NCBI GenBank assembly: GCA_009781235.1
Contig: WQYM01000001.1
Coordinates: forward strand, 1-56,019
Reading direction: 5' to 3'
Source: Bacillota bacterium
GTDB taxonomy: Bacteria; Bacillota; Clostridia; Christensenellales; Pumilibacteraceae
Length of the DNA: 56,019 bases
The notes under the pieces are model-generated. The model was not told the origin of the DNA. It did not search any database and was given only the letters and a program-made list of their open reading frames with translations. A program made the translations under genes and the position numbers. Below are positions 4,361-53,738 of the stretch, one piece after another (the first letter of the stretch is position 1; every line of letters starts with the position of its first letter).

Positions 4361-4516
4361 AAATTACACATTACAATGTACAAATTACAATGTACAAATT
4401 ACAATGTACAAATTACAAATGCGGACTTATTTTGATAGCGGTAGGATTGGATTTGCGAACCAAATCAAGGTACAAACGAAAATAATTCGATATTTGTAAT
4501 TTGTAATTTGTAATTT
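4361..4516 (+). mobile_element. heptamer-armed hairpin element (ATTACAA arms), gene-less copy
   Basis: Left arm 4361-4420 holds repeats of (TGTAC)AAATTACAA. The core starts GCGGACTTATTTTGATAGCGG. Right arm 4492-4516, ATTTGTAATTTGTAATTTGTAATTT, contains the stop of CDS 4515..5363. Confidence 0.75.
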
Positions 4517-5363: not shown

Positions 5364-7239
5364 CTTCTGACTTTTTGCCCGGCTTCGGAGTTTTCGGCGC
5401 TTTTGCCTTTTTGGGCACCTTTTTCGTTTGGGGAGCCTCCGCGTTCAATTTATCGTATAATACCATAAATTCTTCCTCGGAGCAATTAAAAACCTCGCAC
5501 GCATACGGAATCAGAGAAAAAATTTTGTTAATATGCGATTTATACGCCAAAACCGCCGCAGCCGCATTCTCGTTGCATTCCGTTACCCCGGCCGCCTCTA
5601 AGCTCTCCGATACTTTTTTATACCAAAAATTTAGTTTTCGGTCAAACCCCGAATCGATAAACGCCAACGCGCTGTAGACCTTGCGATACGCAGCCAGCAT
5701 CGTCAGGTTGCGGTACCCCTTGGCAGGGACGGCGGGGCGATACCAATGAATTTGATGGTTGACGGTCATTTGAATCTCGCGCACGCGCTCGCAGCGCAAT
5801 AGTTCAAGAAACATTTCTTTTTTGGGAATAATCGGGTAATCGGGATCCAACAGCAGCTCCCGGACAATCGGATAACCCTCCGGATCGCGCGAAAGAGCGC
5901 GGCCGAGCGCCAACGAGTACACATTCCCCGGCGTAATGCCCCACTGCACCGCTTCGGCGAGGAGCTCATCCTTTTCCATCGCGCGTACCAGCTTACCCGT
6001 TCCGGACACTCGCTCGAGCGTTTTTTCTATCAGTTCGCCGAACCGCTTTGCCTCGGCTTTGGGCAGTTCGGGAATCATTTCAAAAAAGAGTGAGGAGTGA
6101 GGAGTGAGGGGTGAGGAGTGATTGCTAGAATGGTTACCGCTCTCATCCAAAAATGTACGCTGTGCATTGCGTGTCGTGCATTTTTCCCTTCCCATCCATC
6201 GTTCCTCACTCCTCACTCCTAACTCCTCACTCTCCGTAACACCCATCGCCTTATCTATCTCCCGCGCGTAATGCCTTACGGTGATGTCGGACGGGTACAG
6301 CGTTTGCAAAATCACGGCGGCGTCCTTAGCCTCGCTAAATTTCCCGAGGTTCGCCGCCGCCAACACGAGCAAAAGAAGCAGCTCGCGGTCGTAGGGCATA
6401 AAACCCAAGGCGCGGCGAAGGTATTTGTACGCCATGCCCTGGGCGCCGACCTGCGCGGCGCACAGGGCAACCCGCGCCGTCTCGGGCCACCCGTCAAAAT
6501 CAAGGACATCTAAGGCGGCAATCGCGGCGCGTGCCTCCGCCTTGCGGCCGTCCATTTCCAGCGCCAAAATCCGGGTCGAAAGCGCGTACAGGTTTTGCGG
6601 CTCGCTTTCTAAAACGCGATTGCATACCGCAAGCCCTTCCTCCACATTCCCCTCGCCGATTTCTATCAGCGCCAGATAGTTTGACGCTTCATTGAATTGG
6701 GCGCTGGACTGGGGAACGGAGAGCAAAATCCGGCGCGCAAATTCGGTGTCGGCCGAGCATAAAAGCTGTTTGGCCGCCTGTACGGCGTGCCTCGCGTCGT
6801 CTTTTTTTAAAAGGCGAAGGTGCGGCGCGGGGTCGTCGCCACTCTTTTTTAAAAGCCCCAGGTCAATCGGCTCGAACCCGTCTTCGGGAAGCAAAATTCC
6901 CGCCTCGACGGCAAAATTTAAGTAATAGGCCGCCTGTTCGGGCATCTCCATCAACGCATAGTTTTTAACCAGCCCGTAATACACCTCGTCCAACCCGTAA
7001 TCAAACGCCGTCAAAAAGTAATATTCGCGGTTGGATTCGGGAAACAGCCCCATCTCCGAATAGATGGCGGCAATTTCAAGGCGTATCGACAAATCGTCAT
7101 CTCCGTACGGGTCGTCCGAAAGTCTTTGAGCGCGGCGCAAAAACTCCAGACTGCCGATATAATCGCCGGCGTCCGCTTTATCGATTGCTTTTTGATAATA
7201 ATACTCCGCCTCGCGCGTGAATTGTTTGAGCTTCTTCAT
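5353..7239 (-). CDS. TPR-repeat protein with unknown C-terminal domain, carrying a 48-aa repeat-element insert
   Basis: The N-terminal half has TPR-like helices. There is an ATGA-type overlap with the upstream gene at 7236-7239. The insert EELGVRSEERWMGREKCTT...PHSS is encoded by 6088-6232. Confidence 0.75.
   Translation of the reverse strand: MKKLKQFTREAEYYYQKAIDKADAGDYIGSLEFLRRAQRLSDDPYGDDDLSIRLEIAAIYSEMGLFPESNREYYFLTAFDYGLDEVYYGLVKNYALMEMPEQAAYYLNFAVEAGILLPEDGFEPIDLGLLKKSGDDPAPHLRLLKKDDARHAVQAAKQLLCSADTEFARRILLSVPQSSAQFNEASNYLALIEIGEGNVEEGLAVCNRVLESEPQNLYALSTRILALEMDGRKAEARAAIAALDVLDFDGWPETARVALCAAQVGAQGMAYKYLRRALGFMPYDRELLLLLVLAAANLGKFSEAKDAAVILQTLYPSDITVRHYAREIDKAMGVTESEELGVRSEERWMGREKCTTRNAQRTFLDESGNHSSNHSSPLTPHSSLFFEMIPELPKAEAKRFGELIEKTLERVSGTGKLVRAMEKDELLAEAVQWGITPGNVYSLALGRALSRDPEGYPIVRELLLDPDYPIIPKKEMFLELLRCERVREIQMTVNHQIHWYRPAVPAKGYRNLTMLAAYRKVYSALAFIDSGFDRKLNFWYKKVSESLEAAGVTECNENAAAAVLAYKSHINKIFSLIPYACEVFNCSEEEFMVLYDKLNAEAPQTKKVPKKAKAPKTPKPGKKSEDGF
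6088..6232 (-). mobile_element. heptamer-armed hairpin element (GAGTGAG/CCTCACT arms) inserted in frame in a CDS
   Basis: The arms are 6088-6120 and 6204-6232. The core is homologous to the one at 29451-29595. The core start on the minus strand is AACGATGGATGGG. Confidence 0.85.
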
Positions 7240-22745: not shown

Positions 22746-22875
22746 AAAATTATAAAATATAAAATATTAAATATAAATTATGGATGAATATTTGAGTAAA
22801 ACAAGTGTTTTTGACAAATAACACGGCAATCAGCAGCCTAAATTTATATTATATATTTTATATTTTATATTTTTT
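22746..22875 (+). mobile_element. heptamer-armed hairpin element (ATAAAAT arms), gene-less copy
   Basis: The arms are 22746-22779 and 22840-22875. The core starts ATGGATGAATATTTGAGTAAAAC. It fills the dus-mazG intergenic gap. Confidence 0.75.
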
Positions 22876-26347: not shown

Positions 26348-26486
26348 TAGCGAATAGCGAATAGCGATGGATTATTTGTATTAGAATCAAAGTTTTATCG
26401 CAAAAAAATTGAAGTGTGCTACCTGCTTTTGATACTAACTAAGAATCATCCGAAGCTATTCGCTATTCGTTATTCGCTATTCGCTA
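26348..26486 (+). mobile_element. heptamer-armed hairpin element (TAGCGAA arms), gene-less copy
   Basis: The arms are 26348-26366 and 26455-26486. The core starts ATGGATTATTTGTATTAG. Confidence 0.8.
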
Positions 26487-29044: not shown

Positions 29045-32000
29045 TCACCCCAGCAAAAACTTCAGCATCCCCGCCCGATCGGCGCCGAACAGGACGCGGG
29101 AGGCGATGGGGTCGATTTTTGCGCCCTTAAAACGGGCGGCGGAGGGCGGGATATCGGCGGTTTTTCTAAACTTTACAAAGGCCTCGGCACGCTTGACCGT
29201 TACGCCCTCGGCTCGAAGGCGGGCGGCGAGGTTTTTAAGGAGGGCGATTAAGATTAGGTTTTCGGTCGGATGCGGGATGGGGCCGTAGATGTCTTTTAGC
29301 TCGGCCATCAGTCTTTTACGCTCGTCCATCGACGCGGTTTGGCTGATGCGGGTGTAGACGCGGACGCGCAAAGCCTTGTCGGCGATATAGTCGTCGGGGA
29401 TAAAGGCGTTGAAGTCGGTAGTGACCTTGACGTCGGGGAGAAAACCCGACGAGTGAGGAATGAGGAGTGAGGAGTGAGGAACGGTGGAAGAACTGCCCTC
29501 TTTTTCATCCGACATTGTGCGCTGCGTTTCGCGCGTTGTGCATTCGTTGTCATCCATCCATCGTTCCTCACTCCTCACTCCTAACTCCTCACTCCACCCG
29601 CCAAGCTCGGCTACCGCTTCCGCTAGTATCCTTGCGTACATCTCATACCCTACCCGCTCGATGTGGCCGTGCTGCTCGCGCCCCAAAATATTGCCGGCGC
29701 CCCTGATTTCCAAATCCCGCATCGCGATTTTAAAGCCGCTGCCAAACTCGGTGAATTCCGTAATCGCGGCGAGGCGCTGGTACGCGCTTTCGGTAAGGAC
29801 TTTATGACCGTCGAACGTAAAATACACGTGCGCAAGCCGGTTGGAGCGGCCGACGCGGCCGCGCAATTGATAGAGCTGTGCAAGGCCGAAGTGGTCGGCG
29901 TCGATGACCACCATCGTGTTGGCATTGGGCATGTCGATGCCGTTTTCGATGATGGAGGAAGCCACCAAAACGCCGTACTTCCCCGCCGTAAACGCCTCCA
30001 CCGTGTTCTCTAAGCTTTCGGCCGCCATCTGCCCGTGGGCAACCGCGACCCGAACCTCCGCGCCCAGCATGTTTTTAACCTGCGCGGCGAATTTGTCGAT
30101 CGACGCGACGCGGTTATAGACGATAAAGGTTTGGCCGCCGCGCCCCGTTTCGCGCAAAACGGCGTCGGCCAGCAGGCTTTCGGCGTACTCGGTAACGTAG
30201 GTTTTAATCGGCAGGCGCTGCTCCGGCGGGGTGTCAAGCACGCTGATATCGCGGATGTGCGAGAGCGAAAAATGCAGCGTGCGCGGGATGGGCGTCGCCG
30301 AAAGCGTCAGCACGTTTACGTCGCTTTTCAGCGATTTTATCTTTTCCTTGTCCGCGACGCCGAACCGCTGCTCCTCGTCGAGAATCAATAAACCGAGGTC
30401 GCGAAATGCCACGTCTTTTGAGAGCATACGGTGCGTGCCGCATACGATGTCGGCGCGCCCGTTTTGCAGGGATTCGAGCGCGGCGGCGATTTCCTTAGGG
30501 GCGTCGAACCTTGTAAGGCTCACGGCATTCACGCCGAACGGTTCCATGCGGTTTTTTACCGTGTTAAAATGCTGGCGCGCGAGGATGGTAGTCGGGGAAA
30601 GAAACGCGACCTGCTTGCCGTCCGCGATTACCTTGTACGCGGCGCGCAGGGCGACCTCGGTTTTGCCGTAGCCCACATCCCCGCACAACAGCCGATCCAT
30701 CACCTTGCCCCGCTCCAAATCTTTTAGGCACTCGTCCGTCGCGGTTAGCTGGTCCTCCGTCTCGTTGTAGGGGAACGCCGCGGCAAATTCGTCGTCAAGT
30801 TCGCGGTTTTTCGGGTATTGGTGTCCCTTTGCCGCCGCGCGCACCGCATACAATTCGGTTAAATCGACCGCCATTTTTGCGACGGACGCTTTTACGCGCT
30901 CCTTGACGCGCGCAAATTCCGCGCCGCCAATCTTTGAGAGCTTGGGTTCCGCTTCGCCTTCGCCGAAAGCAGAGAGGCTGTCCATGTTTTCGACTGGCAC
31001 GTACAGGGTGTCGCCGCCCGCGTAACGGATGACGGCGTAATCGCGCTCCGCCCCGCCCAATTTCAGGCGCGTAACGGATTCGCAAAAGCCGATGCCGTGG
31101 TAGGCGTGCACGACATACGCGCCGATCGCGGGTTCGGTGAACGGGTCGCGCTTGCCCCGCCGTATCACCTTTTTTTGCCCGCCGCCCGGCGCAATCGACT
31201 TGGTGCCGATCAAAACCAGCTTTTCGTCGTGGAAAATGGCACCCTCGATTAGCTTTTCGGCGACGACGTCAAGTTTGCCTTTGCCGCCCGTATTGAAAGG
31301 CCGCAAAGACGCGAAAAATCCCGTCATTTTTTCCTGCGCCGCCGGACTCCCGCAGAAAATAACGACGCGGTAACCGTTGGACATCCACGCCCTAACGTCG
31401 TCCGCAAGGGCGTTAAAATCGCGGTGATAGGCGGGAAAATCGAGCGAGGATTTAAAGTTGAAGAGGACTTGGGGCTTAAAAAGCCGGTTTTGGCTGTCCA
31501 CCGCATGGAACGCGAGCTTTGGACACGCAAATGCAAGCGCAGATTCCTTTGGCGCGAGTTGGCGAATTGAGGATTTTAACACCTCTCCCTTTGAGAGCCC
31601 CGCCTTGTAACGGTTTTCGTGCTCGGTGTAGATGAGGTTGAGTTGGTCGGCAACTTGCTTTGCGTCGTCAAAAATGACGCGTGCGGGTTTAAAAAAATCC
31701 GCAAAGCCGCAGTGATTGAAAAGCGGCATCAAAAACGACAACCGCATATCGTGGGAACCGGAGGTGAGGTCGGAGGTGAGGTGGGAACGGAGGGTATGGT
31801 ATGCGTCCGCGTCTCGGGGTTCGGAGCTCGGGGGACGGGGTTCGAAGTTTTCAGTGAAGGTATCAGGGCACAAGGCACAAGGCGCAGGTACCGGATGAGC
31901 AAAATCTCCTTTATCTGTGCCTTGTGCCTTGTGCCCTGATACCTTTTCTCTCGTATCCAGCTCCGCCAGCGCGCGCGTCAATATCTCGTCCACCTCGGAT

Positions 32001-36147: not shown

Positions 36148-36210
36148 GGGCGAGGCACGAGGGCGAGGCACGAGGGCGAAGCACGAGGGCGAGGCACGCC
36201 TCGCCCCTAC
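36148..36210. repeat. 3 x GGGCGAGGCACGA tandem units ending in a GGGCGAGGCACGCCTCGCCCCTAC palindrome
   Basis: It has the same REP unit as 11519-11632, here with one half-site amplified. Confidence 0.85.
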
Positions 36211-36277: not shown

Positions 36278-38266
36278 TTACTTCTTTTCCCAGCTGTAAT
36301 TGTTGCCCTTGTTTTTCTTGTTAAGCGTATAGCTTGGATCGGGCGATTCGACCTTGTGGAATACCGCCGCAGCGAACATCTCTCCGCTCCGAACGATAAT
36401 CTCGTTGCGCTTTTTGTCGATATCGGTGAGGATTGAGAACGTGTGCACGTGCTGGTTATTCTCTAATTTTATATTTTCTTTCAGCTTTCCGTTGACGCTG
36501 AGCGACAAGTTTTTGCAATTCGTGTACACCTTTACATTCAATATGTCACCCACGCGGTTTTTGAATCTTTCACCCGCGATGTGTATCATGGGCTCCTTTG
36601 ACCAATACGCTTTGTACAGATAAAACGCGTCCTTCTTAATCTTGCGGTCAAAGGTGACTAAGCCCTTGTGGTTTTTGCCCGGATCCCCGCCTTGGTTGCG
36701 GCCGTCGGAGCCGAAGTCAAAAAGGTTCCATACGTGTGTCGCCCAACACCCGGGGTAGTCCTTCATCAACTCTAGATGCTTTTCGTGGTAGATGCACTGA
36801 TATTCCTCGGTGTTGTCGAGACGCTTAGGCTTAGCGGAATGCAAATTGGGCATACCCTCGGCGCCGTACTCGCTAAGCCCGACCGGCTTTTTTAATTTAT
36901 TTGACGCACCCTTAATCCGGTTGAACGCCCCTTTTGCCGGAAGCGGCGCGTACCACCCGTAGTAGAGGTTCCACGACGCCAAATCCGTCACGCGCGCGGT
37001 GGGGTTGCCGCTGCCGCACATCGCATAGCACGCAACCACGGTATAGCGCTCCGGATCTTCCTTTTTACAAAAGTCATGCAGTTGCTGGTGCGACGCCACA
37101 ACGGACTTTATGGGCTTGGCCTTAATTGTTATCTCATTAGAGACGCCCCAGCAAACAATCGACGGATGGTTGAAGTTTTGACTCACCAATTCGCGCATCT
37201 GCGAGAGCGCATTCTCGTCACCGTTCGGCAGATACTCCGAGATGTACGGGATCTCCGCCCACACGACCAACCCTTTCTCGTCGCACAAGTCGTAAAAATA
37301 TTGGTCGTGCTGGTAGTGCGCCAGCCGGACGGTATTGGCGCCCATCTCTAAGATGATGTCCATATCCTCATCCTGATCTTCCTTTGAGATGGCGTTGCCG
37401 ACCTCCGGGCGATCCTGATGGCGGCACACACCGCGCAAGGGATAGGACTTGCCGTTAAGGAAAAACCCTTTTTTCGGGTCGATTTCCACCGACCGAAAGC
37501 CGCAGCGCTCGACCACCTCGTCCACTACCTCCGAGGCGACGATCAGCTCCGCCTTAACGGTATATAGGAACGGGTCGTCTAAGCCGTTCCAAAGGCGCAC
37601 ATTCGGGAACTCAAACACGGTGCCCGCGCGGCCTTGCGCAATCTCTTTATCGCCCTCGTAGACGGTAATGCGCGTATCGCCCCGGGCTTTGGGGAACGTG
37701 GCCGCCGTCAGGATGCCGAAGCTAATCATGTTGGATCCGCCCAACTGGATGTCGACCACCTCGCGCACCTCGACCTTGGTCGAAAGTTTTAAGGGGACGC
37801 CTCCGTCCGGGCCGAATTCAAAGCAGTCCTTGGGCAGAATAACCATGTAAACGTCGCGGTAGATGCCGCCGTAAAACGTAAAATCCGCCCGCTGGGGATA
37901 CACGCGGTCATTCGGCTCGTTAGAAACCTTGACCGTCAAAATATTGGTGCCCATTTTAAGCGCCGGGGTAATGTCGGCGTTAAACGTCGAATACCCGCCC
38001 TCATGCTTTGCGACGGACTCGTCGTTTAAAAAAACCTCGCACTCGGAGTTGACCCCGCGGAACTGAATGTACACGGTGTCGCCCGGGGCTATCTCGGGGC
38101 GCTGCAACCTTTTGGTATACGTACAGGTCATACGCTCGTAATCGCCGCCGCCGCTTTGGCCGTCGACGCCGTTCCACGTATGCGGGAGATTTACCGGCTC
38201 GGGATCCGAATAGGGTTTCCCGCTGGTCCATGTCCATCCGTCATTAATCAATTCAACCTTTCTCAT
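36278..38266 (-). CDS. glycoside hydrolase family 2 (beta-galactosidase/beta-glucuronidase-like)
   Basis: NTVRLAHY, WGVSNE (acid/base) and LSEYGAEG (nucleophile) motifs. Confidence 0.88.
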   Translation of the reverse strand: MRKVELINDGWTWTSGKPYSDPEPVNLPHTWNGVDGQSGGGDYERMTCTYTKRLQRPEIAPGDTVYIQFRGVNSECEVFLNDESVAKHEGGYSTFNADITPALKMGTNILTVKVSNEPNDRVYPQRADFTFYGGIYRDVYMVILPKDCFEFGPDGGVPLKLSTKVEVREVVDIQLGGSNMISFGILTAATFPKARGDTRITVYEGDKEIAQGRAGTVFEFPNVRLWNGLDDPFLYTVKAELIVASEVVDEVVERCGFRSVEIDPKKGFFLNGKSYPLRGVCRHQDRPEVGNAISKEDQDEDMDIILEMGANTVRLAHYQHDQYFYDLCDEKGLVVWAEIPYISEYLPNGDENALSQMRELVSQNFNHPSIVCWGVSNEITIKAKPIKSVVASHQQLHDFCKKEDPERYTVVACYAMCGSGNPTARVTDLASWNLYYGWYAPLPAKGAFNRIKGASNKLKKPVGLSEYGAEGMPNLHSAKPKRLDNTEEYQCIYHEKHLELMKDYPGCWATHVWNLFDFGSDGRNQGGDPGKNHKGLVTFDRKIKKDAFYLYKAYWSKEPMIHIAGERFKNRVGDILNVKVYTNCKNLSLSVNGKLKENIKLENNQHVHTFSILTDIDKKRNEIIVRSGEMFAAAVFHKVESPDPSYTLNKKNKGNNYSWEKK

Positions 38267-38297: not shown

Positions 38298-38326
38298 ATA
38301 ATAACACATCAGATTCGCCTTGTCAA
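38298..38326 (-). promoter_or_regulatory. sigma70-type promoter for the GH2 gene
   Basis: On the minus strand: TTGACA - 17 nt - TATTAT, followed by an AGGAG RBS. Confidence 0.6.
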
Positions 38327-38374
38327 CAAGATAAAATATGAAATACAAAATATAAAATATGTTTTTTGGACTTC

Positions 38375-40276
38375 TTATTCGCGTTTGGCGGCCCAAAGCC
38401 CGGAATTCGCGGCTTTAGATTCGTCGCGCATCTTAACCGTCGAGACGTTGCGCTCTTTTGTAACCGTAAAATGCGAGACGGCATTCGGAGCGTCCGGCAA
38501 GGCTGCGATCGTTTCGGCATAAAAACGGGCGTTGTGCGTCAACACAAAAAGCTGCTTAACGCGACAAGCTTGCGCGGGGAGCTCAAAGCCGTCTTGGCCT
38601 TGTAGGCAATCCGCAAGGCAGTCCTCCGCTATACGGCAAACGGCATCGGCGACGAGCGAAACGGTATCGTCGTCCAAGCCCGAAACCGGGTCGTCGATTA
38701 CCACAATTGTATCCGCGGCGGCGCCGTCGTCCGCAAAGCTCCCCCGGACAAGATGACAAAAGTAAAAGAACGCGATAAAGCCGCGCTCGCCCTCGCTAAG
38801 ATTGTCCGCGACGGAGCCGTCCTCGCGGACGACCTCGTAAACGCTTGCTTTGCCCGCCTTTGGGCGCAAATAAAAGCCGGAAAAATCCGCATCCCGCAGC
38901 ATTCCGTTTATGCCCTCCACCGCCGGTGCGGCGCTTATGACGCTTTTATTGAGCGCGGATATTTCTGCATCCAGCACGCGGAAGCGCTCCGCGCCGTCGG
39001 AGATTTGCCGGGATAGCACGGCAATCTCCCCTTCGAGGTTGTTTTGGTTTGTCCTAAAATACGCAAGCTCGCTTTTGAGCGCATGCGCGATGTGCTGCCA
39101 CACTTTTTGTGTGCACTCCGCCTTTTTTTCCCTTTTTGCGGCGACGACGGCGTTGCTTGTGCGGATTTGCCGGTTAAACCCCTCGATTAGCCCGTTAAGC
39201 TCGGCGCGAAGCGGTTTTAGATTTTCAAGCCCGATAACCTGCGACGGCTCTTTTATTTTATCTGCAATCCGCTTTAAATTCACCTCGACCGCTTGCTCAA
39301 ACAATTCGAGTTTTGACTTGTATTCGGCAAGCTCCAATTTTGGAAACGCGCCTTGCAGATTTTCGCGCAAAACGCTTATAAATTCCCGCATATCGCCGGC
39401 ATACGCGCTTTGAAAACTTTTTAATGCCTCAACCTCCGCTTGATACTGCCCGTCGAAAGCCCCCGCAAATTGCGCGTCAAAATCGTCCGGCAGTTCCTCT
39501 TGGCAATACGGGCACTTCCCGCCTGCAAGCGGCGCATAGCGCGCATGGCCCGCGCGTACCCAGTCCGCAGCGCTTATCGCGTTTATAAAGCGGGAAAATT
39601 CCGTCCCGCCGCTTCCGGTGATGACCTTTGCCAGTAATTCGTTGCCCCGGGTGCCCTTGAGCCTTATCACCTCTCCGACCAGCCGGAATTCCGGGTACTC
39701 GGCGGCGCGCGGGTCAAACGCCGCGTCGCAGAGAACCGCCAAAGCGTCCTCGTCATGCTCTTGCGGATTTTGCGTCTCCAGCGCTTTTTGGGCGAACGAC
39801 GCCTTGAGCTTAGCGCCTGACAGTGCCGCACCGAACCGTTCGCGTAAAGTTTTTGCCCCGACCCAGCAGCTTTCCTGAAAAAATCCGGCCAGCGCGTTTT
39901 TCTCGGATGCTTTTTGCTCCCTTTGGGTAGTTTTTTCTATCGTCGAACGCTCAAGCTCTGCGCGTTCGTCGGACTTTTGCGCAATCTTGCTTTGAATTTC
40001 GGCGTTGTGCTTGCCGACGGTGAATACGCCTTTAAGGTTGCCGTAGCCCCGGAAATTTTCCGCGATAAACTCTTGGTTGAACACAAGCGCGGAATAGTCG
40101 GCGGCGGATTTGCCCGGCAAAAAGGTTAAGCCCTCGGCGCGCCCGACCGCGCTTGCTATGGTGGATTTTCCGGTGCCGTTGCCGCCGTAAAAAAAGCTGA
40201 CGGCGGTCGGCATAAAGCTAACGCCGCTGAAGGTTGCGGCGTTGAGCGTGATTTTTTGAATGGGGCTAGTACGCAT
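38375..40276 (-). CDS. AAA_13-type (RloC/PrrC-like, Rad50-like) ABC ATPase without recognisable nuclease domain
   Basis: Walker A FFYGGNGTGKST, a coiled-coil insert with CPYCQ, signature LSEGERGFIAFFYF, Walker B IVVIDDPVSGLD, and H-loop LTHN. Confidence 0.8.
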   Translation of the reverse strand: MRTSPIQKITLNAATFSGVSFMPTAVSFFYGGNGTGKSTIASAVGRAEGLTFLPGKSAADYSALVFNQEFIAENFRGYGNLKGVFTVGKHNAEIQSKIAQKSDERAELERSTIEKTTQREQKASEKNALAGFFQESCWVGAKTLRERFGAALSGAKLKASFAQKALETQNPQEHDEDALAVLCDAAFDPRAAEYPEFRLVGEVIRLKGTRGNELLAKVITGSGGTEFSRFINAISAADWVRAGHARYAPLAGGKCPYCQEELPDDFDAQFAGAFDGQYQAEVEALKSFQSAYAGDMREFISVLRENLQGAFPKLELAEYKSKLELFEQAVEVNLKRIADKIKEPSQVIGLENLKPLRAELNGLIEGFNRQIRTSNAVVAAKREKKAECTQKVWQHIAHALKSELAYFRTNQNNLEGEIAVLSRQISDGAERFRVLDAEISALNKSVISAAPAVEGINGMLRDADFSGFYLRPKAGKASVYEVVREDGSVADNLSEGERGFIAFFYFCHLVRGSFADDGAAADTIVVIDDPVSGLDDDTVSLVADAVCRIAEDCLADCLQGQDGFELPAQACRVKQLFVLTHNARFYAETIAALPDAPNAVSHFTVTKERNVSTVKMRDESKAANSGLWAAKRE

Positions 40277-41882
40277 CGTCGTCGTCCCCTTGAATGGCGG
40301 GATTGTGGGTTCGGGGCTCGGAATTCGGGGCTCGGGATTCGGGGTTCGGGATTCGGGGTATTAAGTTGTCTTCCTTTAACTGACCACCGACCACCGACCA
40401 CTGACCACTCTCCTCGGGGTTCGGGATTCGGGGTATTAACTCGTCTTCCTTTAACTGACCGCTGGCCACTGGCCACTGACCACTGACCCCCATAGGAGCC
40501 GATGCCCTCGCTGGCCCGCCGTCCCCTGTCCCTACGGTATCTATCCGTTGTTCACCGGCCATCCCTTCTCTCCGCAATTCCTCACTCCTAATTCCTAATT
40601 CCTCATTCGCCTCATTCGCCTCGTTCTCACCTGCCTCGTCCTCCATGGCCGGCAGCGCCAAAATCTCACGTCCGGCGATGCCTTCTAAGTCGCCGCTCAT
40701 GCCGCAGAGGCTTTTAGAAACCTTTTCGATGATTTTTTCCTGCGCCGCCCAACGCTTCTGCGCCTGCTTTTTTTCGAGCGCGAGCTGGCGCGCCATTTCG
40801 TCGTAGGACTCGATGACGCTGCGGATCCGGGAGGCGAATTCCCCGCCCGTCAGATAATTGTACATCATCTCTATTTTGACGTCCTTGCCGCTTGCGTTCC
40901 GGTTGGCGACAAAAACTCTTACGCACACCTCGCGCAAAAGCGAGGCAAGCATCACGGCATAGCGGGGCTTGACCATCCAAATGTTGCCCTCAATCTGCTT
41001 AAAGTCCTCACCGCCGCCGTCGGTCGGGCGAAACACCAAAACGCCGATTTGCGCTTTTTCTTCCGCCATGACGTCTTTGAGTTTTTCGAGCCATTTAGGG
41101 GAATACGCCTTGGCGTTTTTACATTCCCATACAATCAGGCCGCAGTTTTGATAAAATTGTTCGTTTACGGTTTGGCGGACGTCGGAACCTTGCTCGCCTT
41201 TTTTAACCTCTCTAACCGAGTCATAAGGAAAATGGGCACGCAAGGATTGCTCTAAGTCAAGCTCTAAAATTTCACCCTGCGCCTGCTGCGAGCCTTGTTC
41301 GGCCACCTGCTTTGCCGCCGTCAGTTGCTCGCGCAATTTAGAAATGGTTTCTTGCTGTTCGCGGATTTGCGTATAAAAGTCCTCGGACGCCGCCCTTACC
41401 GCCTCCTCGCGGATGAGCTTTTCTTTTGAGAGCAGCTCCTTGCGGGCGGCAAGCTCGGCGTCTTTTTTTGCCTCGGCGGCTTTCGACAATTCCTCGAGCA
41501 GCCCTTTTTGCTGCTCGCGCAATCTGTCCGCGCTGTCTTGGGCGTTTTTGGCCTCGCGGCGGAGCTTCTCGTTTTCGAGCTCGGTGGATTGCTTGGCGTT
41601 TTCCAGCGCCAGCTCCGTCGCTTGCTTGGTTCTCTCTAATTCAAGCTTGGCGTTTTGGCGTTCACGTAAAAGCTTTTGCTCCGCCGCTTGCTCCGCCTCG
41701 CGCACGGCCGATAACACCGCCTGCTTCTCGTTTTCCTCGGCGCGCGACAAAAACTCCCGGCGCAAATTTTCTTCCTGCCCGGCCTTGGCTTTTGTCAGCT
41801 CGTCCTCTATTTGGCGCTGAATGGCGTCGGTTATTTCAAAAGGATTTTTGCAATTTGGGCAAACGATTACGGTTCCGCTCAT
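40266..41882 (-). CDS. DUF2130-like protein: N-terminal CPNC zinc-ribbon-like motif, long coiled coil, PD-(D/E)xK-like core, repeat-derived C-terminal tail
   Basis: MSGTVIVCPNCKNPF. There are about 190 aa of E/K/Q/A-rich heptads. GSDV...IVWECKNAK (D...ExK). From about aa 405 the tail is encoded by repeat elements. Confidence 0.75.
   Translation of the reverse strand: MSGTVIVCPNCKNPFEITDAIQRQIEDELTKAKAGQEENLRREFLSRAEENEKQAVLSAVREAEQAAEQKLLRERQNAKLELERTKQATELALENAKQSTELENEKLRREAKNAQDSADRLREQQKGLLEELSKAAEAKKDAELAARKELLSKEKLIREEAVRAASEDFYTQIREQQETISKLREQLTAAKQVAEQGSQQAQGEILELDLEQSLRAHFPYDSVREVKKGEQGSDVRQTVNEQFYQNCGLIVWECKNAKAYSPKWLEKLKDVMAEEKAQIGVLVFRPTDGGGEDFKQIEGNIWMVKPRYAVMLASLLREVCVRVFVANRNASGKDVKIEMMYNYLTGGEFASRIRSVIESYDEMARQLALEKKQAQKRWAAQEKIIEKVSKSLCGMSGDLEGIAGREILALPAMEDEAGENEANEANEELGIRSEELRREGMAGEQRIDTVGTGDGGPARASAPMGVSGQWPVASGQLKEDELIPRIPNPEESGQWSVVGGQLKEDNLIPRIPNPESRAPNSEPRTHNPAIQGDDDDAY
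40307..40488 (-). repeat. two tandem copies of a two-array element ((GGTCAGT)n - GTTAAAGGAAGAC - (CCCCGAA)n) in the DUF2130 tail
   Basis: The copies are 40307-40409 and 40413-40488, homologous to 44565-44660. They are translated as SGQW.V.GGQLKED.LIPRIPNPE. Confidence 0.8.
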
Positions 41883-43777
41883 GTGAGCTCAGCCTTTCCC
41901 GCGAACTCGGCAGGGATGGGAACCGCATTCACCGACGGCTCGGCAATCTTTGCCTCAGAACGCGTCCAAATCTTTTTGTATAATTTGTCTAAAAAATTGT
42001 CTTTTATGGGCGGCAGCTCCTTACCCGTCTTTTTGTCGATACGCGGCTTTTTGACGGGAATGAATTCGGGGGGGACCTGGTCAATTGTCTGCCAGGTTGC
42101 CATCGCTTGTTCCATGCTCATGCCGCCCGTAACCGCCGCTTTGCGCACCGCGTTTACCGCCTGTACTTCGGCGATTTTTTTGCCCGAAAGTTTGTAGCGC
42201 GTCATGCAAAAAAGCGTAATCAGCCACGTTGCCATCGGGATGATGCAGAATGTTACAATCGCGGCGAGCTCCATGCCGGGCATATAGGGCGTGACCTCTC
42301 CGGGCAGGGCGTTGAGCCCCGGCACCATAAAGACGATGAACAACTGTAAGAGCAGTACTTGCAAGGAGGAAATCAATTTGTCGATGAACGAAAACATCGT
42401 GGACACGATGCCGGGCACAAACTTGCCGCTCCGGTACGTTTCGTAGTCGATGATATCGGCCACCATCGGAATCGTCATTTGATCCGTCACGTTAAACGCG
42501 CCGTAGCCGCACCCGTATAATATGATGAACAAAATCGTGTAGAAGTTTATGGTAAGCTTAAAGCCGCCCTCTAAGGTGTACAACGACAAATAGGTCGCGG
42601 GATTGTCGTGATTATACAGGGCAAGCAATACCGTTACGCCGATATAGAAAATAATCGCAAACAACGCAAACTGCGTGACGGCGCGCTTTTGACCCTTGCG
42701 GCCGCCCGTTTTGGCACCCCACACCAAAAACACGCCCATAAAAATGAAGCATAGCGCGTAAAACGGAATAAACAGGCCGTTGTAGTCGTCCATTAAACAA
42801 CCGAATAACAGGAACGCAACCGCAGCGCTGGTGGCGATGGTTGAGCCTAATTTGTTAAAACCGGCGGAGAGCACCAGCCAACGCAGTTCCTTATTCCCTT
42901 TGACCACGCCGAGGTAATCCTTCGCTTTGACGGGCTCCTTCGACACGCCCCAAAACTCGGGCTTATCCTTGTCCTTGATTGCCATAACCGCCATAAACGT
43001 ATAAACCGCGGAGAGGCCCACAATCAGCGGCACCATGATGAAATAAAACGTCGAGCCGTACGCCGCGCCGAACAGTCTTACGGTTTCGCCCGCGTGCTCA
43101 TACAAAATCTCGCCTTTCAGCCCGACGGGCAAAACACCCGGCAGCAGCCCCATCGCCACGACGTTGACCAGCACGATGCTGCCGAGCATTCCGATGGTGT
43201 TCCACATCCCGAATTGCGAACGCTGCTTGGGGTCGTTGGTCAAGCAGGATTGGCCCGCGCGCGTGACTGCCGTTTGAAAGCTGTAAAAGCACACAAACAT
43301 GATATAGCCCAAAATGAATACCAGCCAGCGCGCCCACATAACGGAGGCGGGCACCAGCATCGAGCCGAATATCATGAATATTACCGAGATCGCAAGCGTG
43401 GCGTTGCCGAAAACCATGAACGGGCGGAATTTGCCGAACTTGGTTTTGGTGCGATCCAACAGCCCGCCGACAAAAACGTCGGTGATGCCGTCCAGCACGC
43501 GCATACAAGGCGCAAAAATACTGACGAACGTGCTGACGCCGATGACCAACGCGCCGGATAATACCGCGCCTGCAACGGCCGCGCCCATACTGCCCGTCAG
43601 CGACATCGTGGCGAAAAACACAAAGAATTGCACGAACGCAAAGTATAAATTCGTCGCCGCGTTGTTAAACGGAAACAGCGCAATCTGCCATTGCTTTGCC
43701 CGATGAAGCCCCTGTACGGTTGCTCCGGCCGCCGGGGACGATGCTGCCGCCGGGGACGATGCCGTTTTTTCTTCCAT
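41879..43777 (-). CDS. GPH/MFS-type sugar:cation symporter with about 90-aa cytoplasmic C-terminal extension
   Basis: It has 12-ish hydrophobic segments. The start was trimmed to ATG 43777 (MEEKTASS), which has a GGAG RBS. Its stop overlaps the DUF2130 ATG (ATGA). Confidence 0.75.
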   Translation of the reverse strand: MEEKTASSPAAASSPAAGATVQGLHRAKQWQIALFPFNNAATNLYFAFVQFFVFFATMSLTGSMGAAVAGAVLSGALVIGVSTFVSIFAPCMRVLDGITDVFVGGLLDRTKTKFGKFRPFMVFGNATLAISVIFMIFGSMLVPASVMWARWLVFILGYIMFVCFYSFQTAVTRAGQSCLTNDPKQRSQFGMWNTIGMLGSIVLVNVVAMGLLPGVLPVGLKGEILYEHAGETVRLFGAAYGSTFYFIMVPLIVGLSAVYTFMAVMAIKDKDKPEFWGVSKEPVKAKDYLGVVKGNKELRWLVLSAGFNKLGSTIATSAAVAFLLFGCLMDDYNGLFIPFYALCFIFMGVFLVWGAKTGGRKGQKRAVTQFALFAIIFYIGVTVLLALYNHDNPATYLSLYTLEGGFKLTINFYTILFIILYGCGYGAFNVTDQMTIPMVADIIDYETYRSGKFVPGIVSTMFSFIDKLISSLQVLLLQLFIVFMVPGLNALPGEVTPYMPGMELAAIVTFCIIPMATWLITLFCMTRYKLSGKKIAEVQAVNAVRKAAVTGGMSMEQAMATWQTIDQVPPEFIPVKKPRIDKKTGKELPPIKDNFLDKLYKKIWTRSEAKIAEPSVNAVPIPAEFAGKAELT

Positions 43778-43907
43778 AATAAAAACTCCTTTGTCATTTG
43801 CGTTAAACAGAGTCGGAAAAAATATTAAGACGATTTTATCATATAAATTCGCCAAAGTCAATTCAATTAATTGAAAAAAATTTTGTTGATTTCTTGCCAA
43901 AAAATGT

Positions 43908-44387: not shown

Positions 44388-44458
44388 GTGACCCGGTCAA
44401 TGCGTGTCCCGTGACCCGGTCAATGCGTGTCCCGTGACCCGGTCACCGTGCACGGGAC
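44388..44458. repeat. 2.5 tandem copies of the 23-mer GTGACCCGGTCAATGCGTGTCCC ending in a hairpin
   Basis: The copies are 44388-44410, 44411-44433 and a partial copy at 44434-44458 (GTCCCGTG...CACGGGAC). Confidence 0.85.
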
Positions 44459-44484
44459 ATTATTCGCTTTTGACATTGCGTGTT

Positions 44485-44557
44485 CCGATGCCCTCGCTGG
44501 TCCGCACCGCATAGTCCGTGTCGATGACGGCGGGTCAGCGAGGGCATCGACCCCTAC
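44485..44557. repeat. REPIN-like doublet CCGATGCCCTCGCTGGTCCGC ... GCGGGTCAGCGAGGGCATCGACCCCTAC
   Basis: Inverted units. A related half-unit occurs in the DUF2130 tail (about 40497-40530). Confidence 0.75.
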
Positions 44558-44564
44558 GAGAATT

Positions 44565-44660
44565 CAGTTTTCAGTTTTCAGTTGTCGGTTGTCAGTTGAA
44601 AGAAGATGGATTTGTATCCTGTCCCCCGAGCCCCGAATCCCGAACCCCGAACCCCGAAAA
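44565..44660 (+). mobile_element. two-array element ((CAGTTTT/CAGTTGT)n - GAAAGAAGATGGATTTG - (CCCCGAA)n)
   Basis: The arrays are 44565-44597 and 44623-44660. It ends 8 nt from the stop of the acyl-CoA synthetase gene. Confidence 0.75.
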
Positions 44661-44667
44661 TCGCCCC

Positions 44668-47778: not shown

Positions 47779-47889
47779 GGTGACTCCTTTTTCACTTAAA
47801 ACTTAAAAATGAAAACTTAAAAATGTTGAATGATTATGGATAAGGAGACAAAAAACATCCTCCATTTTTCAGTTTTAAGTTTTAAGTTT

Positions 47890-48411
47890 TCATTGACTCT
47901 TCCCTATCCTAAACGCCTTCATATTCAGCTCAATCATGTCCGCGCGCTTGGCGGAAATGGCTTTTACGAGGGCGGCTTTGACGGTTTCTTCGTCCTCCGC
48001 CGCCAAAACCTTGCCCATCATGATGATGTTGGCTAGGCTTGCCATTCCGTTATCGGAGGCCAATTGCGTTGCCGGCACGTACACGGCGCAGACGTCGGCG
48101 CGGTTCACTTTGCGGCCGATCAGCGTGGAATCGACAAAAATGGTGCTGCCGGGCTTTGCCGCAGACTCGAACTTATCGAGCGAGGGCAAATTCAGCGCAA
48201 CCAACACGTCGGAAGCGTTGACAATGGGCGAACCGACCGGATCGTCCGAAATAATTACCGAGCAATTCGCGGTTCCGCCGCGCATCTCCGGGCCGTAGGA
48301 TGGCAGCCAACTGACCTGTTTGCCCTTGGTCAGCCCTAAATACGCTAAAAATTTACCGGCGAACAATACGCCTTGGCCGCCGAACCCGGCGAGTAGGTAT
48401 TGGGTAGTCAT
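47890..48411 (-). CDS. 2-oxoacid:ferredoxin oxidoreductase gamma subunit
   Basis: The N-terminus carries GFGGQGV. The start was trimmed to ATG 48411, which has a GGAG RBS. Confidence 0.85.
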   Translation of the reverse strand: MTTQYLLAGFGGQGVLFAGKFLAYLGLTKGKQVSWLPSYGPEMRGGTANCSVIISDDPVGSPIVNASDVLVALNLPSLDKFESAAKPGSTIFVDSTLIGRKVNRADVCAVYVPATQLASDNGMASLANIIMMGKVLAAEDEETVKAALVKAISAKRADMIELNMKAFRIGKSQ

Positions 48412-49228: not shown

Positions 49229-49399
49229 AATGATAAATGATAAATTATAAATGATAAATGTCGGATGGGTTGACTTCCGGAACAAAAGAATTACGCTCTT
49301 TCACAAGCATACAACATCAATAATTTATCATTTATCATTTATCATTTATCATTTGTCTATCATTTATCATTTATCATTTATCATTTATCATTTATCATT
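49229..49399 (+). mobile_element. heptamer-armed hairpin element (ATGATAA/TTATCAT arms) between the alpha and beta subunit genes
   Basis: The arms are 49229-49260 and 49324-49399. The core starts TCGGATGGGTTGACTTCCGGAACAAAAGAA. The right arm encodes the last residues and the stop of the alpha subunit. Confidence 0.85.
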
Positions 49400-50477: not shown

Positions 50478-50631
50478 ATTTACAATTTACGATTTAAAAT
50501 TTACAAATTAGGGATAAGTGTTTTTCGGTTTAAAAGCAAAGTTCTTTTGTTCCGGGCACTCTTATCGGGCTGCCGCAAAAAATCCGTCAATAGTTTGTAA
50601 ATTGTAAATCGTAAATCGTAAATCGTAAATT
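50478..50631 (-). mobile_element. heptamer-armed hairpin element (ATTTACG arms), gene-less copy
   Basis: The arms are 50478-50509 and 50594-50631. The reverse complement of the core aligns with the core of 118-251 (shared CCGGAACAAAAGAAC, CGGAT and TATCCCT). Confidence 0.8.
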
Positions 50632-53245: not shown

Positions 53246-53291
53246 TGTGTGAGTCAATCTCCATTTGCAAAACATTGGCATTCGGTATCGT

Positions 53292-53736
53292 CGGGGTTCG
53301 GGGTTCGGGATTCGGAATTCGAAATTAGTTTTATGTATCAAGTTTTTTAATTAAGGCGTTTATCATTTGACCGATTCGGGCTACAAGACACAAGCAATCC
53401 TCAATATCAGTATCTGACAAATATCCTACATCTACACAAAGAAGACATTGAGTCTCCAGCTCGCAACTTGAGCTTCTTGATATGGCTAAAAACTGAATGT
53501 ATTCTTTCGTTGAGTTTCTAGAATGCCCTTCTGCAATATTCGACGGTATAGATACCGCGGCACGACACATTTGGCTTGTTAATCCGTATTGTTCGTTGCG
53601 CGGCAACCTCTTTGTAAGCAAATATACTCTTTTTACAAGTTCTCTACTTACTTGCCAAACTTCAAGCTCCTTGTAGTTTTTTATCACTTCTGAATCTCCC
53701 TAAATTCGAATCCCGAATCCCGAACCCCGAACCCCG
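53292..53736 (-). mobile_element. heptamer-armed element (GGGGTTC/CCCCGAA arms) carrying an intact four-helix-bundle gene
   Basis: The arms are 53292-53326 and 53702-53736, with 24 perfectly complementary bp plus a partial extension. It fills the pstA-pstB gap and ends 2 nt from the pstCA stop. Confidence 0.85.
53331..53687 (-). CDS. four-helix-bundle protein (23S rRNA intervening-sequence protein family)
   Basis: YKELEVWQ, YGLTSQMCRAAVSIPSNIAEGHSR, EYIQFLAISRSS..ELETQ. GTG start with an AGGGAGA RBS. Confidence 0.88.
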   Translation of the reverse strand: MIKNYKELEVWQVSRELVKRVYLLTKRLPRNEQYGLTSQMCRAAVSIPSNIAEGHSRNSTKEYIQFLAISRSSSCELETQCLLCVDVGYLSDTDIEDCLCLVARIGQMINALIKKLDT

Positions 53737-53738
53737 AC

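Follow-up and report, generated by a model that had tools for sequence, protein, structure and literature searches.

Excision of the tRNA wobble nucleotide by RloC stops translation. Both the literature and the defence-system catalogues describe this protein as a self-contained anticodon nuclease, encoded by one gene and equipped with an internal switch. Its hallmarks are ATP-binding cassette (ABC) ATPase motifs, a coiled-coil insert bearing a CxxC zinc hook, and a C-terminal anticodon-nuclease domain (Davidov & Kaufmann 2008). Both the zinc hook and the nuclease triad Arg-X3-Glu-X36-52-His, which corresponds to R692/E696/H737 in GkaRloC, have been described (PMC2610378). The DNA-dependent ATPase and the zinc hook switch on wobble-nucleotide excision, an activity known for GkaRloC only, and proximal DNA ends or alleviated restriction have been proposed as the trigger (PMC2610378, PMC3458546). 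DefenseFinder catalogues RloC as a single-gene system (bioRxiv 10.1101/2025.04.02.646746), and in PADLOC the family is the single-gene candidate PDC-S06. The window analysed here, one entire contig of 56,019 bp from a Bacillota bacterium of the Pumilibacteraceae (GCA_009781235.1, WQYM01000001.1), carries a relative of RloC (gene 2) directly behind a gene of the DUF2130 family (gene 1). This pair is probably a deeply diverged copy of a DUF2130-RloC operon that has been orphaned from its restriction system and is now a relic or a repurposed remnant.

40266-41882, minus strand: gene 1, DUF2130 protein of 538 aa (open reading frame (ORF) call, PF09903)
38375-40276, minus strand: gene 2, RloC-family Rad50-like ABC ATPase of 633 aa (ORF call, PF13166, PDC-S06)

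The two genes overlap by 11 nt, with the ATG of gene 2 at 40274-40276, and translational coupling between them is kept in the window copy. ORF calling recovered both frames with the lengths and overlap given in the original prediction, which had proposed the pair as a candidate defence system from the DNA letters alone.

Gene 2 is homologous over its full length to the N-terminal region of RloC from Geobacillus kaustophilus (PF13166/COG4694; PDC-S06). As in RloC, its ABC head has the four motifs Walker A, signature, Walker B and H-loop and is interrupted by a coiled coil with a CxxC zinc hook, and the fold is Rad50-like. The relatives of gene 2 are linked to restriction, in keeping with the 'rlo' of the name. 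It differs from RloC in lacking the whole C-terminal anticodon-nuclease (HEPN) domain that defines RloC activity. Furthermore, RloC is catalogued as a single gene, whereas here and in one subclade an overlapping DUF2130 gene precedes it.

The relatives of gene 2 also resemble PrrC/EcoprrI (type Ic restriction-modification (R-M)), as ABC-ATPase-regulated tRNases located in or beside an R-M operon, presumably to step in when restriction fails. PrrC, however, is a short ABC ATPase with a C-terminal anticodon nuclease and an obligate link to type Ic R-M, it lacks the coiled-coil/zinc-hook insert that gene 2 has, and the window contains neither an R-M system nor the nuclease domain. The PrrC profile matches gene 2 weakly (E 1e-4) and only at residues 493-608, in the C-lobe of the ATPase. 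SbcCD/Mre11-Rad50 is alike in gene order, with the nuclease gene first and the gene of a zinc-hook coiled-coil ABC ATPase overlapping it, and Rad50 is the best structural match of gene 2. In contrast to SbcCD, gene 1 encodes a PD-(D/E)xK protein with a long coiled coil of its own rather than a calcineurin-like phosphoesterase, the coiled coil of gene 2 is much shorter, and a complex of the two products is putative.

Lamassu likewise combines an SMC/Rad50-like sensor ATPase with a separate nuclease effector, and gene 2 has a weak match to LmuB (E 1.9e-11). Gene 1 also matches the LmuB model weakly (E 0.024), probably via its coiled coil, and the PADLOC profiles gave no LmuA or LmuC match for the pair. 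The LmuB scores lie far below those of PDC-S06, and both gene order and partner family differ. On the same grounds, profile scores far below PDC-S06, a PrrC, PARIS, Septu-type or Lamassu identity for gene 2 was rejected. Gabija (GajA ABC-ATPase/Toprim and GajB helicase) offers a second case of a DUF2130 gene before an ABC-ATPase defence gene. On the Aliarcobacter butzleri plasmid NZ_CP104379.1 (4500-9706, locus L056), a DUF2130 gene ends 2 nt before a Gabija operon whose genes are bona fide (GajA E 2e-190, GajB E 3e-270). This is a single observation, and there are no Gabija genes in the window.

Gene 2 and the anticodon-nuclease domain

Judged by its sequence, gene 2 encodes a Rad50-like ATPase of the RloC family from which the tRNase effector domain has been lost. 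It matches PF13166 (AAA_13) with E 6.3e-94 over profile positions 19-608 of 713, in line with the family call of the original prediction, and PDC-S06 with E 3.1e-149 over positions 2-618 of 732 (84%). The full-length relative P0123 covers positions 2-725 of the same 732. Homologues of gene 2 are almost all 760-765 aa long, the closest is 52% identical, and several are labelled 'wobble nucleotide-excising tRNase', that is RloC, by the Joint Genome Institute. The ATPase, which had been taken for the SMC-like half of a pairing not recognised as a named system, thus falls by homology in a named anti-phage family, RloC (PDC-S06 in PADLOC). In PHROGs, gene 2 matches phrog_2801, whose function is unknown. 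The motifs and the end of the protein are located as follows.

40160-40186, minus strand: Walker A GGNGTGKST, residues 31-39 (translation; G31, N33, G34, G36 and K37 invariant)
39503-39514, minus strand: CPYC zinc-hook motif, residues 255-258, at the tip of the coiled-coil insert (C255, P256 and C258 invariant)
38531-38800, minus strand: C-terminal half of the ATPase head, motifs intact
38783-38800, minus strand: signature LSEGER, residues 493-498 (translation; alignment columns invariant)
38687-38704, minus strand: Walker B VVIDDP, residues 525-530 (translation; alignment columns invariant)
38531-38542, minus strand: H-loop LTHN, residues 579-582 (translation; alignment columns invariant)
38375-38377, minus strand: TAA stop, premature end of gene 2 (alignments to the family)

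In the AlphaFold2 (AF2) model of gene 2 (predicted local distance difference test (pLDDT) 83) the ABC head is complete and is divided by a helical insert with arms at residues 89-140 and 266-444, and the best structural matches of the model in Foldseek are Rad50 chains (E 1.6e-7). A search of solved structures by sequence returned none for RloC relatives and none that was meaningful for DUF2130. Of the three RloC hallmarks, the ABC motifs and the CxxC coiled-coil insert are therefore present in gene 2 and the Arg-X3-Glu-X36-52-His domain is missing.

The window protein ends in …LWAAKRE, ~20 residues short of the aligned R-x3-E. In its relatives this motif, R658-x3-E662, lies within the ~130 residues beyond the end of the window protein and is present in 107 of 108, followed at x40 by a His in 54 of the 61 members of the clade nearest the window. 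A tblastn search of the window in all frames found no remnant of the C-terminal nuclease domain. The domain is kept in 79 of 80 related viral-contig loci and in nearly all of the representative relatives, and the best 150 relatives from an exhaustive search of 1.84 billion representative proteins are mostly 730-790 aa long. The absence of an anticodon-nuclease region, which had been proposed from the letters, thus holds for the window protein and fails as a family trait. The suggested logic of an ATPase with a separate nuclease as sole effector is likewise not what is conserved, as the relatives keep the anticodon-nuclease domain.

The part of the protein next to the missing domain is also altered. 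Family-conserved positions are kept at 108 of 126 sites in residues 1-520 and at 27 of 63 in residues 521-633, and a stretch of ~14 residues is deleted. The head region adjoining the lost domain has drifted while the remainder stayed conserved. A natural short AAA_13/RloC-like clade of 596-607 aa without the C-terminal nuclease domain does exist (P0414, P0448, P0451, P0467, P0474, P0469, P0453 and P0392). Membership of the window protein in this naturally anticodon-nuclease-less subfamily was ruled out, as its nearest neighbours are full-length and it falls outside the 596-607-aa clade. The alignments indicate that the shortening of gene 2 is a lineage-specific truncation and not a feature of the family.

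Outside this clade, the other short forms are sporadic and independent. One is found in Clostridia bacterium FACS1894217 (L042, 8001-10303), where RloC (P0187) is split into ORFs of 634 and 136 aa that overlap by 13 nt. With the nuclease domain in a separate frame, this gene is either a frameshift pseudogene or a split form.

Gene 1 and the DUF2130-RloC operon in other genomes

Gene 1 encodes a predicted PD-(D/E)xK nuclease of the DUF2130 family. DUF2130 (PF09903) is its sole Pfam match (E 5.6e-44, covering profile positions 4-240 of 255, with 150.8 bits where the cut-off is 26.7), which agrees with the family first proposed for it, and the family has already been listed among the PD-(D/E)xK families with function unknown (PMC3424549). 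This match and the AAA_13 match of gene 2 are far stronger than chance would give. Its features are the following.

41850-41861, minus strand: CPNC, residues 8-11, a single CxxC knuckle (translation; beta-hairpin in the AF2 model)
41232-41828, minus strand: long helix/coiled-coil region, residues 19-217 (AF2, pLDDT ~85-92)
40896-41219, minus strand: PD-(D/E)xK core, residues 222-329, with D234 at 41181-41183 and E253-x-K255 at 41118-41126 (E253-C-K255 within IVWECKNAK)
40284-40626, minus strand: in-frame insertion of ~97 codons, built from tandem repeats (heptamers and a 75-nt unit) (TRF arrays at 40298-40626)
40269-40283, minus strand: acidic-aromatic C-terminal tail DDDAY, overlapping the gene 2 start codon (tail comparison)

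The AF2 model of gene 1 (pLDDT 79) consists of a CxxC hairpin, the helix of residues 19-217, an alpha/beta core at 222-329 and C-terminal helices. Foldseek matches of the core are to Hjc (probability 0.99, template-modelling score 0.49), MspJI, BstEII and Bax1, all weak with a best E of 3e-3. C8, P9, C11, D234, E253 and K255 are invariant in the DUF2130 alignment, including an acidobacterial clade at ~30% identity. All of the motifs originally proposed for the two proteins were found on translation, and the coiled coil of ~190 aa proposed for gene 1 fits the modelled helix. The CPNC at the N-terminus is real, however the full zinc ribbon suggested around it was downgraded to a single CxxC knuckle, as no second Cys pair is conserved in the DUF2130 alignments.

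Homologues of gene 1 are 420-443 aa long and 65-71% identical, with the nearest at 71%, which makes the length of 538 aa atypical. The additional length is the repeat insertion, which lies between the last conserved helix and DDDAY, is absent from all homologues and falls in a linker predicted to be disordered (AF2). Without it gene 1 is well conserved, keeping 89% of family-conserved positions with mostly conservative changes. The top-scoring match to gene 1, P0002 (L043, 8001-9584), is also long at 527 aa and 63-65% identical. Part of its coiled coil, ~110 residues, is duplicated internally, and it is a solo gene adjoining an oligopeptide ABC transporter operon.

The pairing of DUF2130 with RloC is not limited to the window. 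As the original prediction had asked, the co-occurrence of both families was traced beyond this genome, and a DUF2130 gene followed by a full-length RloC gene recurs in many taxa with an identical 11-nt overlap (seen in L001, L007, L039 and L042). Hosts include Dethiobacter, Desulfosporosinus, Syntrophomonas and other Clostridia. The pair stands directly after type III R-M genes in SNF2-DUF4391-Mod-Res clusters (L001-L014, L018, L029, L052-53) and directly after a type I HsdR gene in L039-41. In L042 it follows an HTH_17 gene, with type II R-M and AbiH downstream.

The 8 kb upstream of the pair in L001, L007, L012-L014, L018 and L029 hold a five-gene block shared across distant Firmicutes. This block comprises an SNF2 helicase, DUF4391, either SLFN_AlbA_2 or a 160-aa ORF at a variable position, type III Mod and type III Res. 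DUF2130-RloC comes next, and beyond it lies Abi_2 or a 1186-aa PDC-S68 helicase-nuclease.

Where DUF2130 is paired with RloC, its C-terminus is extended by a tail of ~20 residues that closes with [DE][DE]D[ED][YF]. This tail is present in all paired copies and absent from most solo copies, which end earlier. Two solo genes keep it, with ends of the form …KPR…DDEY or …DEEDE: one in Limisphaerales (L016, 8001-9326), still behind a type III Mod/Res pair, and one in Oscillospiraceae (L028, 6829-8163), adjoining rimP/nusA. Both look like recent losses of RloC.

DUF2130 also occurs widely on its own. It is found without RloC in 16 of 21 GTDB loci and is an abundant stand-alone gene in Acidobacteriota. 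In some loci of Clostridia, solo copies adjoin der/plsY, rimP/nusA, comM, Hsp70, GH65 or oligopeptide ABC genes. Only 3 of the 80 viral-contig RloC loci include DUF2130, and relatives of RloC at ~40% identity stand alone beside variable R-M systems on phage-like or integrative and conjugative element-like elements. The DUF2130 pairing is confined to one RloC subclade, and DUF2130 is not an obligate partner of RloC.

More distant DUF2130 genes are carried on plasmids of Sulfurimonas paralvinellae (L139), Chryseobacterium (L054), Bradyrhizobium (L057) and Mesorhizobium (L140). Their contexts include a gamma-glutamylcyclotransferase gene and a reverse-transcriptase-like gene adjoining DUF2130, and a position of DUF2130 between a very large DEAD helicase gene and type I M/S genes. 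Others lie 3' of an AAA ATPase gene near PIN/SIR2, or beside ProQ/FinO and DUF736 genes.

The restriction-appended DUF2130-RloC operon appears to be undescribed in the searched literature and in PADLOC. No PADLOC model includes DUF2130, PHROGs has no family for gene 1, and NCBIfam gave no informative match for the pair. The literature on DUF2130, PF09903, COG4487 and PDC-S06 contained no functional study of these and did not mention the DUF2130+RloC pairing.

In relatives, the intact operon lies directly 3' of restriction genes in mobile defence islands; these genes are of type III (Mod/Res, accompanied by SNF2 and DUF4391) or of type I (HsdR). RloC itself is a Rad50-like ABC ATPase whose coiled coil bears a zinc hook and whose C-terminal part is an anticodon nuclease of the HEPN type. 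In the proposed model, DUF2130, translationally coupled to RloC, would probably dock onto it via the acidic-aromatic C-terminal tail. It could then play a role toward RloC like that of SbcD/Mre11 toward SbcC/Rad50, generating the DNA ends sensed by RloC, keeping hold of them or processing them; alternatively, it may be a second, DNA-directed effector arm. The assignment of DUF2130 as a putative nuclease partner of RloC is based on the coupling, the tail found in paired copies, the nuclease-first gene order as in sbcDC and the constant 3' position in restriction operons.

Surroundings of the pair and repeat elements

41879-43900, minus strand: MFS_2 (GPH-type) sugar transporter gene (Pfam MFS_2, E 1.8e-30)
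38298-38326, minus strand: sigma-70-type promoter TTGACA-17-(TG)TATTAT for GH2, 5' of the GH2 ATG (sequence)
36278-38266, minus strand: GH2 glycoside hydrolase gene (Pfam Glyco_hydro_2_C, Glyco_hydro_2_N and related domains)

The pair lies between a sugar transporter gene and a GH2 gene. At the upstream junction the TGA stop of the transporter and the ATG of gene 1 share the sequence ATGA; this junction and the TTGACA-17-TATTAT promoter of the GH2 gene are both present as originally described. The transporter probably starts at the ATG at 43780 rather than at the TTG at 43900, promoter-like sites are found at 43947-43833 in its start region, and alignments of relatives reach to within 4 residues of its C-terminus. 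As no promoter-like or terminator-like site was found in the interval between the transporter and gene 1, the pair would be read through from the transporter promoter. Downstream, the gene 2 stop is only 108 nt from the GH2 ATG.

A scan of the window found no R-M gene, integrase or other defence/PADLOC-type gene near the pair. Its neighbours in the window are Mfd, Pth, a leucine-rich repeat protein, an AMP-ligase, BCAT, 2-oxoacid:ferredoxin oxidoreductase and ABC transporters. The pair had been read as an insertion between a transporter and its glycosidase. This is unconfirmed: the empty-site comparison, made by a metagenome scan, yielded two useful transporter relatives only, and what lies downstream of the transporter gene in these closest relatives (78% and 62% identity) is AlaRS or UxuA and neither GH2 nor DUF2130.

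The insertion in gene 1 is a copy of a repeat element present elsewhere in this genome. An intergenic element at 44520-44665 is built in the same way, and the window contains 14 occurrences of the insertion's CCCGAAYCCCGA motif where 0.02 would be expected. The open frame across the insertion was not used as a sign of selection, because a second frame of the repeats is also open, so that the chance of reading through in frame is ~1 in 3. The intergenic composite repeat extends over 44388-44665 and consists of a 23-mer in 2.5 copies (GTGACCCGGTCAATGCGTGTCCC), a conserved block (…CAGCGAGGGCATCG…), (TCAGTTK)n and (CCCGAAN)n.

Approximately 70 short tandem arrays, mostly with a 7-nt period, are spread over the window, mainly in intergenic gaps. 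Examples of heptamer arrays are found at 4365-4516, 6088-6232, 22747-22873, 26348-26486, 29454-29595, 47794-47890, 49229-49399 and 50478-50630. Many are paired 60-120 nt apart with reverse-complementary units, so that long hairpins are possible, and the unit sequence varies by site. These arrays look like a genome-wide family of repeat elements. One array, (ATAAAAT)n at 38331-38360, lies between the gene 2 stop and the GH2 promoter, and a 13-nt tandem repeat (GGGCGAGGCACGA, 3.9 copies, 36148-36198) lies just 3' of the GH2 gene. Elsewhere, a 118-aa ORF on the minus strand (53331-53687) encodes a 23S rRNA-intervening-sequence/bAvd-like four-helix-bundle protein (PF05635, E 2.8e-38). It is bracketed by inverted (CCCGAAN)n arrays at 53291-53321 and 53705-53737.

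State of the window copy and alternative readings

Relative to the intact operon, the window copy has had its RloC anticodon-nuclease domain deleted and has no restriction genes. A genome-specific heptamer-repeat element has inserted in frame into the disordered DUF2130 linker, and the pair would be read through from the sugar transporter gene. Because the tRNase domain is gone, the locus cannot act as an anticodon-nuclease defence. The ATPase and DNase parts, whose motifs are intact, may keep a reduced DNA-directed activity. The absence of R-M and defence genes in the window, the repeat insertion in gene 1 and the 27 of 63 conserved positions kept in residues 521-633 of gene 2 are all signs of a relic. 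On this evidence a relic or repurposed remnant is favoured over a working two-gene defence system.

Several observations weigh against this preferred reading. Both ORFs are fully open and the catalytic motifs are kept, despite nearest relatives that are only 52% and 71% identical. The RloC/DUF2130 divergence ratio of the window pair, 1.5-1.75, lies inside the family range of 0.5-2.3, which suggests continued purifying selection and a pair that is maybe not a dead relic. This same ratio rules out overall divergence as a sign of relaxed constraint. P0398, a complete and independently short gene of 623 aa between two McrBC systems, and the likewise short RloC-like P0379 each have a conserved N-terminal part and diverged last ~110 residues, as in the window protein. 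Since these two and the ~600-aa clade exist, forms without the anticodon nuclease can persist. The third triad residue is His in 58 of 108 relatives overall, so the assignment of an anticodon nuclease to these relatives is based on motif and homology. Finally, the window lineage is carried by one genome only, and the interaction between DUF2130 and RloC is putative. The intact motifs, open frames and normal ratio fit either a reduced DNA-directed function or slow decay, and the data do not decide between the two.

The alternative closest to the original prediction is that the pair is a working two-gene defence system. Here the Rad50/SMC-like ATPase would be a sensor controlling a separate PD-(D/E)xK DNase effector, as in Lamassu or SbcCD, with the anticodon-nuclease domain dispensed with. 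The intact ORFs and motifs, the retained coupling and the normal divergence ratio are consistent with this, as is the persistence of other RloC-like genes without the anticodon nuclease, in defence islands (L049) and as a natural short clade. The DUF2130 gene 2 nt upstream of Gabija, and others beside R-M, reverse transcriptase and PIN/SIR2 genes, also fit a defence role. However, the idea of a candidate defence system is supported by the R-M and defence islands of the relatives and not by the window locus, which has no defence-island context. The lineage is unique, no short form conserved together with DUF2130 was seen, and the naturally short proteins form a clade to which the window protein is not related. 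Furthermore, the region adjoining the deletion lost 57% of family-conserved positions, the pair is read through from the sugar transporter gene and has no promoter of its own, and there is no PADLOC model containing DUF2130. A working system of this kind is therefore unlikely, though it deserves some weight.

A broader and rather speculative proposal is that DUF2130 is an unrecognised accessory immunity nuclease for ABC-ATPase-type defence proteins, docking through its tail to form Mre11-Rad50-like complexes beside restriction systems. It builds on the position of DUF2130 before a whole RloC subclade and before Gabija on at least one plasmid. If true, the window pair would show that the ATPase and DUF2130 core can outlast the tRNase, perhaps with some activity on DNA left.

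It is improbable that the function is a housekeeping one outside phage defence, in which the pair or DUF2130 alone would serve DNA repair or recombination by acting on DNA ends or hairpins in the manner of RmuC or SbcCD. Such a role would accord with the solo DUF2130 genes of Clostridia beside der/plsY, rimP/nusA, comM, Hsp70, GH65 and oligopeptide ABC genes, with the abundant stand-alone DUF2130 of Acidobacteriota and with the housekeeping-type neighbourhood in the window. The many inverted heptamer arrays of the genome could provide a hairpin substrate. Conversely, RloC-family proteins are not known to have a housekeeping role, RloC-paired DUF2130 occurs in R-M/defence islands and mobile elements, and its patchy, horizontally transferred spread across phyla is typical of accessory genes. 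Least probable is an assembly artefact in which a metagenomic contig is chimeric at the AT-rich heptamer array and the real gene is full-length: the window is a single whole contig and (ATAAAAT)n, a kind of repeat frequent in it, directly follows the gene 2 stop, however the strongly diverged last 110 residues and a ~14-residue deletion are unlike a simple mis-join, the in-frame stop is followed by a well-formed promoter of the next gene, and the usual R-M partner is missing at the upstream end of the module too.

The reading of the window pair as a diverged, restriction-orphaned copy would make it an example of toxic-module decay, in which the effector was deleted, the module invaded by a repeat and the restriction partner lost. 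The interest lies in the conserved DUF2130-RloC pairing and not in the window locus, a degraded example of it. In a widespread subclade, RloC is coupled to a PD-(D/E)xK nuclease and appended to restriction operons of type I or type III. In that subclade at least, this points to RloC being part of a nuclease-ATPase complex wired to restriction. The pairing could help with the question of which DNA signal activates RloC in vivo, and it would offer a first clue to function in DUF2130, which is a very large family without any known role.

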